From NCBI RefSeq assembly GCF_003334315.1, contig NZ_QOWR01000007.1: 64,000 bases of DNA; one strand, 5' to 3'. Source of the stretch: Escherichia coli. Lineage in GTDB: Bacteria > Pseudomonadota > Gammaproteobacteria > Enterobacterales > Enterobacteriaceae. Each line of letters opens with the position of its first letter. Position 1 is the stretch's first letter. Positions 10,077 to 19,028 of this stretch are shown here, in pieces. A program made the position numbers and the translations under genes. The notes under the pieces were generated by a model. The model was not told the DNA's origin, searched no databases, and saw only the letters and a program-made list of their open reading frames with translations.

Positions 10077-10127
10077 TTTATAGCGAAAGCGTTACAACTG
10101 GTAGTATAACGCTCTGATATCTATTAA

Positions 10128-11405
10128 TTAGCTTGTCGCTAACTGTACTTGCGGTTCTTCATCTTTAACTTTGATAAGCGTCCACAGCGCAATGGCGCCA
10201 ATAATGTCAAAGAAAGCCAGGGCAATAAAGAACGGCGCGAAGCCGATAATGTGAACGAATGCCCCGATAAACAGGTTGAAAATCAACTGACCGCTCCACG
10301 CACAGGCTCCTGCCATACCCACTGCGGTAGCTACTTCGTCTTTTTTGAACAGATCGCCACCCAGAGTTGCTGCTACAGTAGAAAGACATTGATGCGAGAA
10401 CGCGCCAATACTAATCAGTAATACGGCAATGTAGGGATTTTCGACAATACTCACCAGGCCAATCGTCATCATAATGACGGCTGCAATAGTGAAGGTAATT
10501 CTTCGTGAGTTAATTAAACTCACGCCGCGATCGTGGAAGAACTTCGCGACAAAACCACTGGCTAAACAGCCGAGATCGCCCAGCAGGAAAGGCAGCCAGA
10601 CGAACATGGCAATTTCTTTCAGGCTAAAATGCAGCGTTTCGACGAAGAAAATCGGCACCCAGAAGTTAATGGTTCCCCATGCCGGGTCTGCGAGAAAACG
10701 CGCGATGCCAATCCCCCAGAAATTACGTTGGCTGAGGATATGCTTGATTGACGTTTTTTCTTTCTTATCTGTTTTAAGATGCTGTTCTTGCCCTGATTCA
10801 ATATAGTGGCGCTCTTCATCAGAAAGGCGTTTGGCATCTTTCGGATCTTTATAACAAAAGAACCAAAATAAAGCCGCGAGCAAAGCAAGGCTACCTGAAA
10901 CAATAAACGCAAATTGCCAGCTATGAAACATAATGCACCAGGCAATCAACGGTGGAGCAAGCATCGCGCCGAGTGAGGTGCCCATATTGAAAACACCTGT
11001 CGCCACGCCACGCTCTTTTGCCGGGAACCATGTTGATGCGGTTTTTACACCCGCCGGAATTGCCGACGCTTCGCTGAAACCCATCAGGGCGCGCATAAAT
11101 GCCAGACCTGACCACGTTCCGGTTAGTGCATGGCCCATTGTCGCCAGGCCCCAAATTGCGGCACATATCGCAAAACTTAACTTCAGACCCACGGTATCAA
11201 TAAAGAAGCCCATTACCGGTTGCCCTAATGTATAGGCCAACTGGAATGCACTGACAATCCATGAATATTGCTCTTTAGTTATTCCGGTTGTCTCCATAAT
11301 CGTTGGAGCCGCAATACCTAACGCCGTTCTGTCCAGATAATTGATTACAGTGATAAAGCATACGAGGGCAATTATATGCCACCGGTAATTCTTTATTTTA
11401 TTCAT
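10128..11405 (-). CDS. MFS transporter, anion:cation symporter (ACS) family, resembling sugar-acid transporters (ExuT/DgoT/GudP type)
   Basis: 425-aa ORF, about 12 predicted TM segments; N-terminal ITVINYLDRTALGIAAP motif typical of ACS-family MFS; last gene of the island operon; parts look AT-rich by eye. Confidence 0.8.
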   Translation of the reverse strand: MNKIKNYRWHIIALVCFITVINYLDRTALGIAAPTIMETTGITKEQYSWIVSAFQLAYTLGQPVMGFFIDTVGLKLSFAICAAIWGLATMGHALTGTWSGLAFMRALMGFSEASAIPAGVKTASTWFPAKERGVATGVFNMGTSLGAMLAPPLIAWCIMFHSWQFAFIVSGSLALLAALFWFFCYKDPKDAKRLSDEERHYIESGQEQHLKTDKKEKTSIKHILSQRNFWGIGIARFLADPAWGTINFWVPIFFVETLHFSLKEIAMFVWLPFLLGDLGCLASGFVAKFFHDRGVSLINSRRITFTIAAVIMMTIGLVSIVENPYIAVLLISIGAFSHQCLSTVAATLGGDLFKKDEVATAVGMAGACAWSGQLIFNLFIGAFVHIIGFAPFFIALAFFDIIGAIALWTLIKVKDEEPQVQLATS

Positions 11406-11497
11406 GTTTAAACCTTTTAATTATATTAATAAACCCTGGTTGTTGGTGTTTCCGTGTAATAGGTAATAAAAATCAGGTACAGAGGAAATATTGAAAA

Positions 11498-17547: not shown

Positions 17548-17734
17548 ACAATAACTCTCTTTTTTGAATATTGTTTTCTAAGTGACAATTAGCTTGCGAC
17601 GTGCCGCAAGAAAGATCAACCATCTGGTTGGTTGATATGCGATAGTGATCACAGGACATTTGATAACTTGATGAAAGTACAAGTTTTTATCCTTTTTACT
17701 GGAGCTTCTAATTAATCGGGTTAAGATAGTTATC
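17548..17734. promoter_or_regulatory. Divergent promoter/operator region between the island operon and its TetR regulator
   Basis: 187-bp AT-rich intergenic region between divergent genes; contains inverted repeats (see operator feature). Confidence 0.45.
17615..17636. promoter_or_regulatory. Candidate TetR-type operator (8-6-8 inverted repeat)
   Basis: ATCAACCA-tctggt-TGGTTGAT, perfect 8-bp arms read directly from sequence, 99 bp upstream of the TetR start; a second IR cttgcg-acgtgc-cgcaag lies at 17593-17610. Confidence 0.4.
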
Positions 17735-18406
17735 TTGAAGAGGTCGTGGGGAAGCGTTATGTATCTTGATACCAGCAACGTACAGAGCCTGAAGGAAAAG
17801 CTGCTGTTATGCGCGGTTAATGAATTTGCCGAATATGGTTATGAAGGGGCCAGGGTCGATAATATTGTTAAGGCTGCGGGGTGTAGTAAACAGACGGTTT
17901 ATCATCACTTTGGTAATAAAGAAAATTTATTTATTGAAGTACTGGAATATACCTGGAACGATATTCGACAAAAAGAAAAGGCCCTTGATTTCTCAGATCT
18001 TCCGCCACAAAAAGCTATTGAGAAAATTATTGATTTTACATGGGATTATTATATTGCTAACCCCTGGTTTTTAAAAATTGTGCATAGTGAAAATCAAAGT
18101 AAAGGTGTGCATTATGCAAAATCACAGCGTCTCTTAGAAATTAACCATGCGCACTTGCAGTTAATGGAATCCTTATTGGATGAAGGGAAGAAACACAATA
18201 TTTTTAAGCCAGATATCGACCCATTGCAGGTGAATATTAATATTGCTGCGCTTGGGGGATATTATTTGATCAACCAGCATACGCTTGGCCTGGTTTATCA
18301 TATCAGTATGGTTTCCCCCCAGGCACTGGAAGCCAGACGTAAGGTCATCAAAGAGACGCTCCTTAGCTGGCTTTTGGTTGATCCTTCATCTACTGCGCAC
18401 GAATAA
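17735..18406 (+). CDS. TetR/AcrR-family transcriptional regulator
   Basis: 223-aa ORF; N-terminal HTH ([28 protein letters not shown]); AT-rich by eye; alternative start at 17759; 3' end overlaps the ytfB stop by 17 bp. Confidence 0.8.
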
Positions 18407-19028
18407 AACTGCCATCCGGCTGGCGGGTAAACAGGACCTGTTGATTATTCCCCGTATCAATAGTTAAGCCCGTCACCACGCCGCTGGCGTTCTGGCGGAT
18501 TTTCACCATCTGCCCGTTTTGCAAATTACTCAGCGGCTTACCCGCGCCTTCTACCTGCGCCATTGCATAGACATCGGTAGCGGGCAGTCCGTGGTCGCGG
18601 AACAGCTGCGCCATCGTTTTACCGGGTTCGACACGGTAAGAGCGCCATTGATTATCAATTCCGCTATCTGGCTGGAATGGTTGTGTTTGGGTAGTTTGCG
18701 GCTGTTCTTCTGGCTGGCCTTCCTGTATAGGTTCTGGAGCGACCGGAGCCACCTGATCAGGATCATTTTGTGGTGTGACTAATTGCGCCCGCAGCTGTTC
18801 TTCTGTCGGCGGTTGTGATTGCGACTGAATATCTAACTGCGCTTCACGCGTCACCACCGGCGCGTTGGGCGTATCATCAGATGGAAGCAGAAATCCGACC
18901 ACCAATATAATGGCGGCAATAATGATCCCCCGACGATGCATCGGCGGCAGCGGGTCCATGAAGCGAAAATTGTCCGGCGCGTGCCAGACTTTCTCCAGGG
19001 TTGGTTTTAGTTCAAAGCGCCCGGGCAT
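18390..19028 (-). CDS. ytfB: Cell-division protein YtfB (OapA/LysM-like)
   Basis: Track ORF 18390-19064 trimmed to [29 protein letters not shown] start (212 aa); single TM segment and Pro/Gln-rich linker. Confidence 0.85.

Follow-up and report, generated by a model that had tools for sequence, protein, structure and literature searches.

Several described systems recall, each in part, the locus that is the subject of this study, a block of seven genes lying between rplI and ytfB in a 64,000-nucleotide stretch of Escherichia coli DNA (contig NZ_QOWR01000007.1 of RefSeq assembly GCF_003334315.1; this whole stretch is called the window here, and all positions refer to it). Six co-directional minus-strand genes encode a short-chain dehydrogenase/reductase (SDR), a xylose-isomerase-like TIM barrel, a crotonase-fold protein, a CoA-transferase, a flavoprotein and a permease of the major facilitator superfamily (MFS), and a gene for a TetR-family regulator diverges from them; this arrangement, proposed in an earlier note made from the sequence alone, is borne out by the open reading frames (ORFs) and by their Pfam families. 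All the enzymes come from well-known superfamilies, and taken as a whole the block is a catabolic operon under the control of a repressor. As in the carnitine operon caiTABCDE, a transporter, a CoA-transferase, a crotonase-fold (de)hydratase and a flavoprotein oxidoreductase stand in one operon, and the probable logic is also shared, the CoA ester serving only to activate an alpha-proton while CoA is recycled between substrate and product. The analogy, which the earlier note had drawn with the proviso that different protein families are used, is a fair one, all four of these components being present. At the level of families the two systems part: CaiB is a family-III CoA-transferase, whereas that of the operon belongs to family I and is of the YdiF type; CaiA, an acyl-CoA dehydrogenase, depends on FixABCX, whereas the operon flavoprotein has a NadB/SdhA fold and no Fix or Etf genes are found in the operon; CaiT is a BCCT antiporter, whereas the operon has an MFS or a tripartite ATP-independent periplasmic (TRAP) transporter; and the cai operon is without an SDR, a TIM barrel and a TetR regulator. 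Homology to cai is limited to the crotonase superfamily, the (de)hydratase fold of the crotonase being the sole defining feature of cai that the operon displays.

Other likenesses concern single parts of the operon. Soluble NADH:enoate reductases (Klebsiella FRD, Vibrio ARD/Crd, urocanate reductase) share the flavoprotein's FAD_binding_2 domain, and in distant members of its family they are matched further by fusion or adjacency to domains resembling old yellow enzyme (OYE). In the case of Bacillus subtilis IolG/IolI and E. coli YcjQRS, a ring ketone is formed by a dehydrogenase, after which a metal-dependent TIM barrel isomerises or epimerises the neighbouring centre, an order mirrored by the SDR-(Gfo/Idh/MocA)-TIM arrangement of the conserved module described below; unlike those systems, carboxylates are the substrates proposed here, and a flavoprotein and CoA enzymes are added. 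The Ashwell pathway (UxaC, UxuB/UxaB, UxuA/UxaA, KdgK and Eda, with ExuT or TRAP uptake) resembles the operon in its likely substrate class, in the type of uptake and in a probable end point at 2-keto-3-deoxygluconate (KDG), KdgK and Eda. The operon chemistry, unlike that of the Ashwell enzymes, uses a flavoprotein and CoA esters, and no UxaC, UxuA/B or UxaA/B family was detected among the six operon proteins with NCBIfam or Pfam. The acyl-CoA pathway for 2-deoxy-D-ribonate of Klebsiella michiganensis (Price et al. 2019, PMC6365646) is likewise enterobacterial, with MFS uptake, and is among the few sugar-acid routes proposed to run via CoA thioesters; its enzymes are a CoA synthetase, a beta-hydroxyacyl-CoA dehydrogenase, a thiolase, a glycerate kinase and a lactonase. 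As an identity for the operon it was ruled out, since it lies at another locus and has no enzyme family in common with the operon except a generic CoA-transferase. The Brucella BaaR/dca operon for dicarboxylate beta-oxidation was discarded as well, being built on a family-III CoA-transferase and an acyl-CoA dehydrogenase and unrelated to the present genes.

The view of the earlier note that no pathway can be assigned also held up. The names given by PGAP and UniProt are generic; among the operon proteins the SDR alone passes a curated NCBIfam cutoff; homologues of the flavoprotein and of the TIM barrel carry only generic source names, with no close characterised relative in the PDB; and full-text literature searches with gene names, locus tags, product names and structure codes returned no description of the gene cluster.

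We propose, tentatively and with rather less than even confidence, that the operon serves the inducible catabolism of a hexuronate-like hydroxy-carboxylate, combining flavin redox by the carboxylate, CoA-cycling (de)hydration and keto-isomerisation and feeding KdgK and Eda. The TetR regulator would repress the operon at a ATCAACCA-N6-TGGTTGAT palindrome until a ligand appears. The substrate, a hydroxylated carboxylate and most likely a ring-shaped, hexuronate-like sugar acid, would enter through whichever carboxylate transporter fills the last slot of the operon (an ACS-type MFS permease here, a TRAP system in other strains). The flavoprotein would act at the carbon or carbons beside the carboxylate, by C-alpha/C-beta dehydrogenation or, in reverse, by ene-reduction. 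The CoA-transferase and the two-glutamate crotonase, in a step modelled on CaiB/CaiD for carnitine, would form a CoA-cycling hydratase/dehydratase working on the carboxylate end at no net cost in CoA or ATP, and the SDR and the IolI-like TIM barrel would interconvert hydroxyl and keto groups on the polyol part, with a keto shift or an epimerisation. The product, probably a 2-keto-3-deoxy sugar acid, would then pass to KdgK and Eda, encoded elsewhere in E. coli. The set of genes, their intactness and catalytic motifs, purifying selection, conserved synteny, the operator-like site and the recurring gene neighbours are observed; the substrate class has support of an indirect kind, and we infer in which order and direction the steps run, what accepts or donates the electrons and what the end product is.

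A wider claim, possible in our judgement though rather doubtful, is that the operon is the enterobacterial version of a phylum-spanning, undescribed route for uronate-like sugar acids, whose defining enzyme would be a new NadB/SdhA-like flavoprotein acting beside the carboxylate. If this were true, several lineages would run a sugar-acid route via CoA thioesters, which is very rare for carbohydrates, and about half of E. coli, together with Salmonella and K. oxytoca, would gain a gut- or plant-derived acid beyond the reach of the Ashwell pathway, for which uronates of blocked, deoxy, anhydro or epimeric form, 4-O-methyl-glucuronate or L-iduronate for example, would be candidates. If the catabolic model holds, the operon represents a nutrient niche that splits E. 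coli roughly in half, is common to Salmonella and K. oxytoca and is still unnamed. The substrate would give a function to a flavoprotein family found in at least 593 species-level genomes, would add a CoA-dependent branch to sugar-acid metabolism and would explain the structural-genomics structures 3QC0/3JU2, 7VPF and 4DA9, functionless for over a decade. As a gap in what is known of metabolism in the best-studied bacterium, the operon is well defined and open to experiment, and it reaches far beyond E. coli.

The flavoprotein (690 aa, minus strand, 11498-13570) has a FAD_binding_2 domain (PF00890) and a three-domain fold closest to that of NadB and SdhA, which place it in the PF00890 superfamily, with about 20% identity to NadB and to SdhA/FrdA. 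Compared with these proteins it carries an extra C-terminal beta domain of some 80 residues, and its context is sugar-acid catabolism rather than NAD synthesis or respiration; no Fe-S or membrane-anchor genes are present in the operon, where its gene adjoins those of the CoA-transferase and the transporter. In an alignment of 35 family members, H437 and R469 are invariant and align with NadB H351/R386 (FrdA H355/R390), the pair that holds the substrate carboxylate; the N-terminal motif GTSxxxGSDKQT is without a covalent-FAD histidine in the same alignment; and the capping domain (residues ~277-420), which is not alignable with NadB, has its own set of invariant residues. Domain and fold thus agree with the FrdA/SdhA-like label that the protein had first been given, whereas several catalytic features of FrdA are missing. 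Where FAD_binding_2 enzymes have been characterised, an alpha,beta-unsaturated carboxylate is bound by this domain, which also performs the C=C redox, with OYE-like domains delivering electrons from NADH; on the same scaffold, NadB can instead oxidise a C-alpha-heteroatom bond. Either chemistry may apply to the operon flavoprotein, and the flavin-dependent C=C redox named in the earlier note is a putative assignment.

The family to which the flavoprotein belongs is large, with 422 clusters at 50% identity (E<=1e-30), and its relatives, labelled only "FAD-binding protein", occur in at least 593 species-representative genomes of Planctomycetota, Verrucomicrobiota, Lentisphaerota and alpha-, beta- and gamma-proteobacteria. 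Distant members are fused to NADH-oxidising OYE domains or encoded beside them, often in anaerobes. Such relatives lend weight to a second explanation, which we regard as unlikely, namely that the operon is a reductive, cai-like electron sink: an imported beta-hydroxy or unsaturated acid would pass through its CoA ester to become an enoate or enoyl-CoA, which the flavoprotein would reduce, so that NAD+ is regenerated during anaerobic growth in the gut and no carbon is assimilated. The gene logic, which is that of caiTABCD (transporter, CoA-transferase, crotonase, flavoprotein), is in keeping with such a sink, as is the fact that the characterised soluble FAD_binding_2 enzymes are enoate reductases for the anaerobic reoxidation of NADH, and one beta-proteobacterial locus of the family adds an acyl-CoA dehydrogenase and EtfAB. 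The E. coli operon itself, however, is without an OYE, FMN_bind, cytochrome or Etf partner, the KdgK/Eda and high-affinity uptake systems of its relatives point instead to the assimilation of carbon, and the alpha-proteobacterial operons are rich in O2-linked oxidoreductases of the glucose-methanol-choline (GMC) type.

The company that the flavoprotein keeps in other bacteria was followed in 80 loci, drawn from named genomes and from metagenomic contigs, in which ORFs were called and clustered. Across 74 loci its partners are the SDR, the TIM barrel, Gfo/Idh/MocA or GMC oxidoreductases, and KdgK/Eda, with the SDR cluster adjoining the flavoprotein gene in 34 of the 74 and the TIM barrel present in 12. 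Three types of locus can be told apart. In type A (flavoprotein 45-58% identical to that of the window), found in Brenneria, Pseudescherichia, Phytobacter, Mangrovibacter, a lentisphaerial metagenome-assembled genome, beta-proteobacteria, Opitutia and Coraliomargarita, the layout is TetR / SDR-(Gfo/Idh/MocA)-TIM-flavoprotein plus a carboxylate transporter, the latter being of the TRAP, ACS-like or PcaK-like (AAHS) MFS, or TctA kind. Since all these transporters are carboxylate carriers and the flavoprotein keeps the NadB-like His/Arg pair, the substrate itself is likely to be a carboxylate. Type B (flavoprotein 52-57% identical) is found in Rhizobium, Devosia and many Rhodobacteraceae and is best seen on plasmid pRCCGE531c of Rhizobium sp. 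CCGE531 (698418-716411), where about 14 genes in one direction encode LacI, a Gfo/Idh/MocA protein, a CoA-transferase, a crotonase, an aldehyde dehydrogenase and a sugar-type ABC importer, followed by two GMC oxidoreductases (one of them BetA-like), a levoglucosan-dehydrogenase-like Gfo/Idh/MocA protein, the flavoprotein and a KdgK-like kinase. The outline of this plasmid operon is kept in many Rhizobium, Devosia and Rhodobacteraceae genomes, with no assigned substrate; in other type-B loci a Dabb protein is inserted, LacI stands beside it and Eda is sometimes present. The BetA-like GMC oxidoreductase and the betaine-aldehyde-dehydrogenase-like aldehyde dehydrogenase of type B are the classic pair for the conversion of an alcohol via an aldehyde to an acid, which suggests that type B makes its carboxylate from an imported neutral carbohydrate, whereas type A imports the carboxylate. 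Type C (flavoprotein 36-43% identical), in Planctomycetota and other anaerobes, combines OYE or a long OYE form, SDR, Eda, the flavoprotein, a PfkB kinase and an MtnA-like isomerase; in the type-C cluster, the planctomycete loci also encode a 504-aa protein resembling a BNR/Asp-box beta-propeller. In alpha-proteobacterial and planctomycete loci, the immediate neighbours of the flavoprotein gene include those for KdgK-like kinases, Eda or both, and it is because of these neighbours that a 2-keto-3-deoxy sugar acid is the product we favour.

The transporter narrows the substrate further. The MFS permease of the window (425 aa, minus strand, 10128-11405; Pfam MFS_1) is the last gene of the operon, and its best NCBIfam match, although below the cutoff of that model, is TIGR00893, the D-galactonate transporter subfamily (315 bits), in agreement with the ACS family to which it had been assigned beforehand. 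Within E. coli this last slot is polymorphic, with the MFS gene in 1686 genomes and a DctPQM TRAP system in about 1446; in Klebsiella and Salmonella it is filled by a third cassette, made of an MFS permease that is only 51% identical plus an EamA gene. Up to about residue 480, the flavoproteins of MFS- and TRAP-type E. coli hardly differ, whereas identity is about 70% beyond that point, so the exchanged transporter segment starts inside the flavoprotein gene, and the C-terminal ~210 residues of the flavoprotein co-vary with the type of transporter. The best PDB matches of WP_000695892.1, the E. coli TRAP binding protein (4OVR, 4X8R, 4N8Y, 4N15, 4N91 and 4MHF, E 1e-60 to 1e-71) form a group crystallised with D-glucuronate or D-galacturonate, and two papers confirm the ligands, namely galacturonate for 4N8Y and glucuronate for 4X8R, and also those of the binders Apre_1383 (4N91) and Bpro_3107 (4MHF). 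The same hexuronate group comes out best for the binding protein of a metagenomic type-A locus, L007, whose flavoprotein is 45% identical to that of the window and whose binding protein is 40% identical to the E. coli one. It is because the TRAP binding proteins of these two independent loci best match binders of glucuronate and galacturonate that we take the substrate to be hexuronate-like. Taken together, the clues from transporters, enzyme relatives and gene neighbours converge on a polyhydroxylated ring carboxylate about as large as a hexuronate, without singling out one compound.

Of the remaining two conserved enzymes, the TIM barrel points to sugar-type chemistry. The SDR (263 aa, minus strand, 16756-17547; Pfam adh_short), encoded by the first gene of the operon, is a classical member of its family, with the motifs TGAARGIG (residues 11-18) and NNAG (92-95), S153/S154, and Y167 and K171 in Y167xxxK171; it passes the NCBIfam cutoff of NF009386 (420 bits), a model with the generic name '3-ketoacyl-ACP reductase', and its closest solved structures, 4DA9 and 4ONE, are without an assigned function. 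An identification as KduD was rejected, the match being no better than that to generic FabG-like models. In the TIM barrel (280 aa, minus strand, 15904-16746; Pfam AP_endonuc_2), the Glu-Asp-His-Glu metal ligands E146, D185, H210 and E252 are invariant in 24 sequences. An AlphaFold2 model (pLDDT 94) superposes on 3QC0 with a TM score of 0.93, and the nearest structures, those of Sinorhizobium meliloti SMc04130 (3QC0/3JU2) and of a Paenibacillus 'putative sugar isomerase' (7VPF), also have no assigned function. The nearest characterised relative is inosose isomerase IolI, followed by Art22, UlaE, TM0416, ketose 3-epimerases and YcjR, with identities to IolI and YcjR of 15-19%. On these grounds the protein is probably a metal-dependent isomerase or epimerase of a keto-sugar or keto-cyclitol, and because its relatives are IolI, ketose 3-epimerases and YcjR, and because the Gfo/Idh/MocA partners of the module are IolG-like or levoglucosan-dehydrogenase-like, we expect sugar-type chemistry. 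In various E. coli and Shigella strains there is also a 207-aa TIM-barrel protein, about 72% identical to that of the operon over two thirds of its length, which may be a truncated divergent allele or a paralogue.

The same relatives could be read in favour of a hydroaromatic or cyclitol carboxylate, similar to quinate, shikimate or dihydroshikimate, in place of a uronate, a substrate we consider distinctly unlikely. In that case ring hydroxyls would be oxidised and isomerised by the SDR and the IolI-like barrel, and the flavoprotein would introduce or remove a ring double bond beside the carboxylate. With IolI as the nearest characterised relative, the dehydroshikimate dehydratase QuiC1 as a detectable structural neighbour and an IolG-like protein as the best match of the Gfo/Idh/MocA partner, such chemistry is conceivable; cyclohexanone dehydrogenase and ketosteroid dehydrogenases are among the fold relatives of the flavoprotein, in Brenneria a PcaK-type permease for aromatic acids goes with the module, and ring polyol carboxylates would presumably be close enough to pyranuronates to suit hexuronate-like binders. 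The similarity of the TIM barrel to dehydroshikimate dehydratases is nevertheless marginal (E 4.5e-4), for which reason 3-dehydroshikimate dehydratase was also ruled out as its identity, and the KdgK/Eda neighbours fit open-chain sugar acids better. E. coli, moreover, is classically negative for growth on quinate, although half of its strains carry the operon.

The two CoA enzymes look catalytically competent. The CoA-transferase (513 aa, minus strand, 13567-15108; Pfam CoA_trans, PF01144) is a fused alpha/beta family-I protein of the YdiF/Pct type whose single chain aligns end to end with E. coli YdiF (2AHU, E 2e-113); the catalytic glutamate is kept, E324 aligning with YdiF E333, and the best NCBIfam match, FadX, lies below its cutoff. 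In the crotonase-fold enoyl-CoA hydratase/dehydratase (258 aa from the RefSeq start; minus strand, 15118-15894; Pfam ECH_1) both catalytic glutamates are present (GGGIE115L and PE135VMLG), and the best PDB matches are a 3-hydroxypropionyl-CoA dehydratase and short-chain enoyl-CoA hydratases. That this pair might be an insertion specific to Escherichia was ruled out by the annotated Rhizobium plasmid and by a tblastn re-search, the 10-kb flanks of the first locus set having excluded the CoA genes of type B: at least 13 type-B loci have a trio of CoA-transferase, crotonase and aldehyde dehydrogenase at their upstream edge. In L021, a beta-proteobacterial TIM-flavoprotein locus, the CoA-transferase shares 67% identity with its Rhizobium counterpart, and a crotonase, MaoC, an acyl-CoA dehydrogenase and EtfAB are encoded as well. 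A YdiF-type CoA-transferase and a crotonase thus recur with the flavoprotein in Enterobacteriaceae, in Rhizobium and Rhodobacteraceae, in a beta-proteobacterium and in a Desulfobacterales genome, a distribution from which the CoA module appears integral and its functional association with the flavoprotein recurrent. The operon does not form a self-contained CoA pathway: its most conserved core across bacteria consists of the flavoprotein and the SDR, in part with the TIM barrel, in sugar or sugar-acid contexts that include KdgK/Eda.

The nature of these matches raises a further alternative, in which the CoA half would be devoted to C3 acids and would handle a fragment released from the imported compound, taking malonate semialdehyde or 3-hydroxypropionate via 3-hydroxypropionyl-CoA and acryloyl-CoA or acrylate to propionate, with the flavoprotein as an acrylate or acryloyl-CoA reductase. 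We judge this very unlikely. It accords with the best PDB match of the crotonase, with the YdiF/Pct type of the CoA-transferase, with the existence of one FAD_binding_2 enzyme that is a specific NADH:acrylate reductase, with the gene content of L021 beside its TIM barrel and flavoprotein, and with the aldehyde dehydrogenase added in the Rhizobium operons. Yet no other member is as widely conserved as the flavoprotein, which often has no CoA enzymes nearby; in alpha-proteobacteria its gene adjoins KdgK-type kinases rather than CoA genes, and the matches of the crotonase to short-chain enzymes are generic.

Several observations weigh against the uronate-like route that we favour. In the flavoprotein, the histidine of the QFH motif (NadB H244/FrdA H232) is replaced by an invariant QFG (G276), and no counterpart of the catalytic Arg R290 could be identified in the capping-domain alignment, so that the type of reaction it catalyses is uncertain; nor does the operon encode an electron partner of the kinds named above. 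The similarity of the TRAP binding protein to hexuronate binders, at about 40% identity, is insufficient to fix the ligand. Glucuronate and galacturonate are themselves unlikely substrates, E. coli being already equipped for both with the Ashwell pathway. Identity to the Rhizobium pair is only 38% for the E. coli CoA-transferase and 34% for the crotonase, and the two may, to judge from this distance, have been recruited independently. Many type-A loci (Brenneria, Pseudescherichia, Lentisphaeria) are without CoA genes within 10 kb, the module of Brenneria is paired with an aromatic-acid permease, and the alpha-proteobacterial flavoprotein is paired with an ABC importer for neutral sugars. Finally, no single chemically complete route that needs all six proteins could be built: uronyl-CoA beta-elimination to 5-keto-4-deoxyuronate (DKI), C5 epimerisation of iduronate, oxidative ring opening of an anhydro-uronate and cleavage of glucosylglycerate were considered, and none of them uses all six proteins or is favoured by the data.

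That the operon is inducible is suggested by its regulator. The divergent TetR protein, WP_001355698.1 (215 aa from the RefSeq start, plus strand, 17759-18406; Pfam TetR_N and TetR_C_29), whose ORF in the ORF list begins upstream at TTG 17735, faces the SDR gene across an intergenic region that contains a perfect palindrome at 17615-17636, ATCAACCA-tctggt-TGGTTGAT, with 8-nt arms. The core of this palindrome, CAACCA..TGGTTG, is found at the same position in E. albertii, Klebsiella and Salmonella; Brenneria, Pseudescherichia and two metagenomic loci have related AACCA..TAGTTGA sites, and wherever a genus has this TetR, the core lies upstream of its SDR gene. We therefore consider the palindrome a candidate TetR operator. 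A promoter scan of the same intergenic region gave no strong sigma-70 match for the operon. The same type of TetR accompanies SDR-flavoprotein modules in distant taxa.

The layout of the operon is compact. The junctions and overlaps given in the earlier note (16746/16756, 15900/15904, 15108/15118 and 13567-13570) agree with the ORF coordinates: SDR and TIM barrel genes are separated by 9 nt, TIM barrel and crotonase genes by 3-9 nt (the crotonase ORF runs over 15118-15900 in the ORF list, whereas the RefSeq start is at 15894), and crotonase and CoA-transferase genes by 9 nt, while the CoA-transferase and flavoprotein genes overlap by 4 nt. A gap of 92 nt between the flavoprotein and MFS genes had not been mentioned before. 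On the left, a G+C-rich hairpin with flanking A- and T-runs (GCCGACC-agtg-GGTCGGC, 10053-10079), located between the convergent rplI (plus strand, 9577-10026) and MFS genes, is probably a bidirectional terminator. On the right, the 3' ends of the convergent TetR and ytfB (minus strand, 18390-19028) genes overlap by 17 nt (18390-18406).

The block had been called accessory and absent from K-12, where only yjfZ and ytfA were named at this place. Comparison with K-12 confirms the absence: the rplI-ytfB slot of K-12 holds only yjfZ and a 3' fragment of the TetR gene, homology with the window ends just past the rplI terminator (~10082), the hairpin being the last sequence in common on the rplI side, and it restarts at 18004. 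The last 403 nt of the TetR gene are kept in K-12 as "ytfA", which PGAP annotates as a pseudogene without the N-terminus, and the 17-nt overlap with ytfB may be the reason why this 3' end stayed when the rest was replaced. Megablast recovered 80% or more of the 8.3-kb block from 2732 of the 5426 complete E. coli genomes surveyed, the block being carried by roughly 53-58% of the genomes, with a 100% match in a chicken-meat isolate. The gene yjfZ, whose product is a DUF2686 protein, was present in 2539 of the 5426 (47%), roughly the complement of the operon-bearing set, and yjfZ and the operon are alternative alleles of one locus (10083-18003 of the window versus K-12). This presence/absence polymorphism matters for strain typing, for metabolic models of strains other than K-12 and for a quantitative PCR (qPCR) marker of E. 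coli based on yjfZ: in 2024, yjfZ was promoted as a conserved signature gene of E. coli and Shigella for water-quality qPCR, with a signal about 3 logs below those of the other two markers in one test strain (PMC11057252).

The block, replaced by yjfZ in about 47% of E. coli genomes, is not an inserted island. K. oxytoca and S. enterica have the same seven genes in the same order and in the same rplI-ytfB slot, and in E. albertii the seven genes adjoin ytfB-fklB-cycA. SDR, TIM barrel, crotonase, CoA-transferase and TetR are 87-94% identical to the Klebsiella and Salmonella copies, as compared with 89-98% for the flanking RplI, RpsF, PriB, FklB and CycA. Because genes, order and slot are shared at core-like divergence by E. 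albertii, Salmonella and Klebsiella, the operon was present in their common ancestor; on this comparison the locus belongs to the ancestral state of Enterobacteriaceae, and K-12 represents a replacement in which the TetR gene was truncated. No integrase or transposase ORF was found within 10083-18410, no repeats flank the block, no tRNA or other Rfam family was detected in it, and its base composition is not deviant, with a G+C content of 0.40-0.57, like that of the flanks.

The operon genes have ratios of nonsynonymous to synonymous divergence (dN/dS) of 0.03-0.07 relative to their Klebsiella and Salmonella orthologues, and the operon is under purifying selection. Given the intact ORFs, the catalytic motifs, this low dN/dS and the order and position shared in three genera, we consider the operon functional and maintained. 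It is extremely improbable, in our estimate, that E. coli carries here a decaying remnant that is now functionless. Such a remnant would be in line with its loss or replacement in about 47% of the genomes, with an IS1 element in the MFS gene and IS-mediated deletions in some strains, and with truncated TIM-barrel variants annotated in some E. coli and Shigella genomes, whereas in the window all seven ORFs are intact, the low dN/dS extends over the divergence of Escherichia, Klebsiella and Salmonella, the candidate operator is conserved and the transporter has been actively swapped rather than lost.

The synonymous divergence itself is raised. Relative to Klebsiella and Salmonella, the dS of the operon genes is 1.0-2.7 (saturated), above that of fklB and cycA (~0.9), and it is highest for the flavoprotein, TetR and MFS genes; weak codon bias or old allelic exchange could account for these values. 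Several near-identical copies of the operon have IS1 inserted in the MFS gene, and in strain JSMCR1 an IS1-associated deletion takes out the middle of the operon, which indicates ongoing decay in some lineages. In many genomes of the yjfZ type, including O157:H7 and EC052, the ytfA remnant is split further by an element of the IS200/IS605 family, which encodes tnpA and the RNA-guided endonuclease TnpB.

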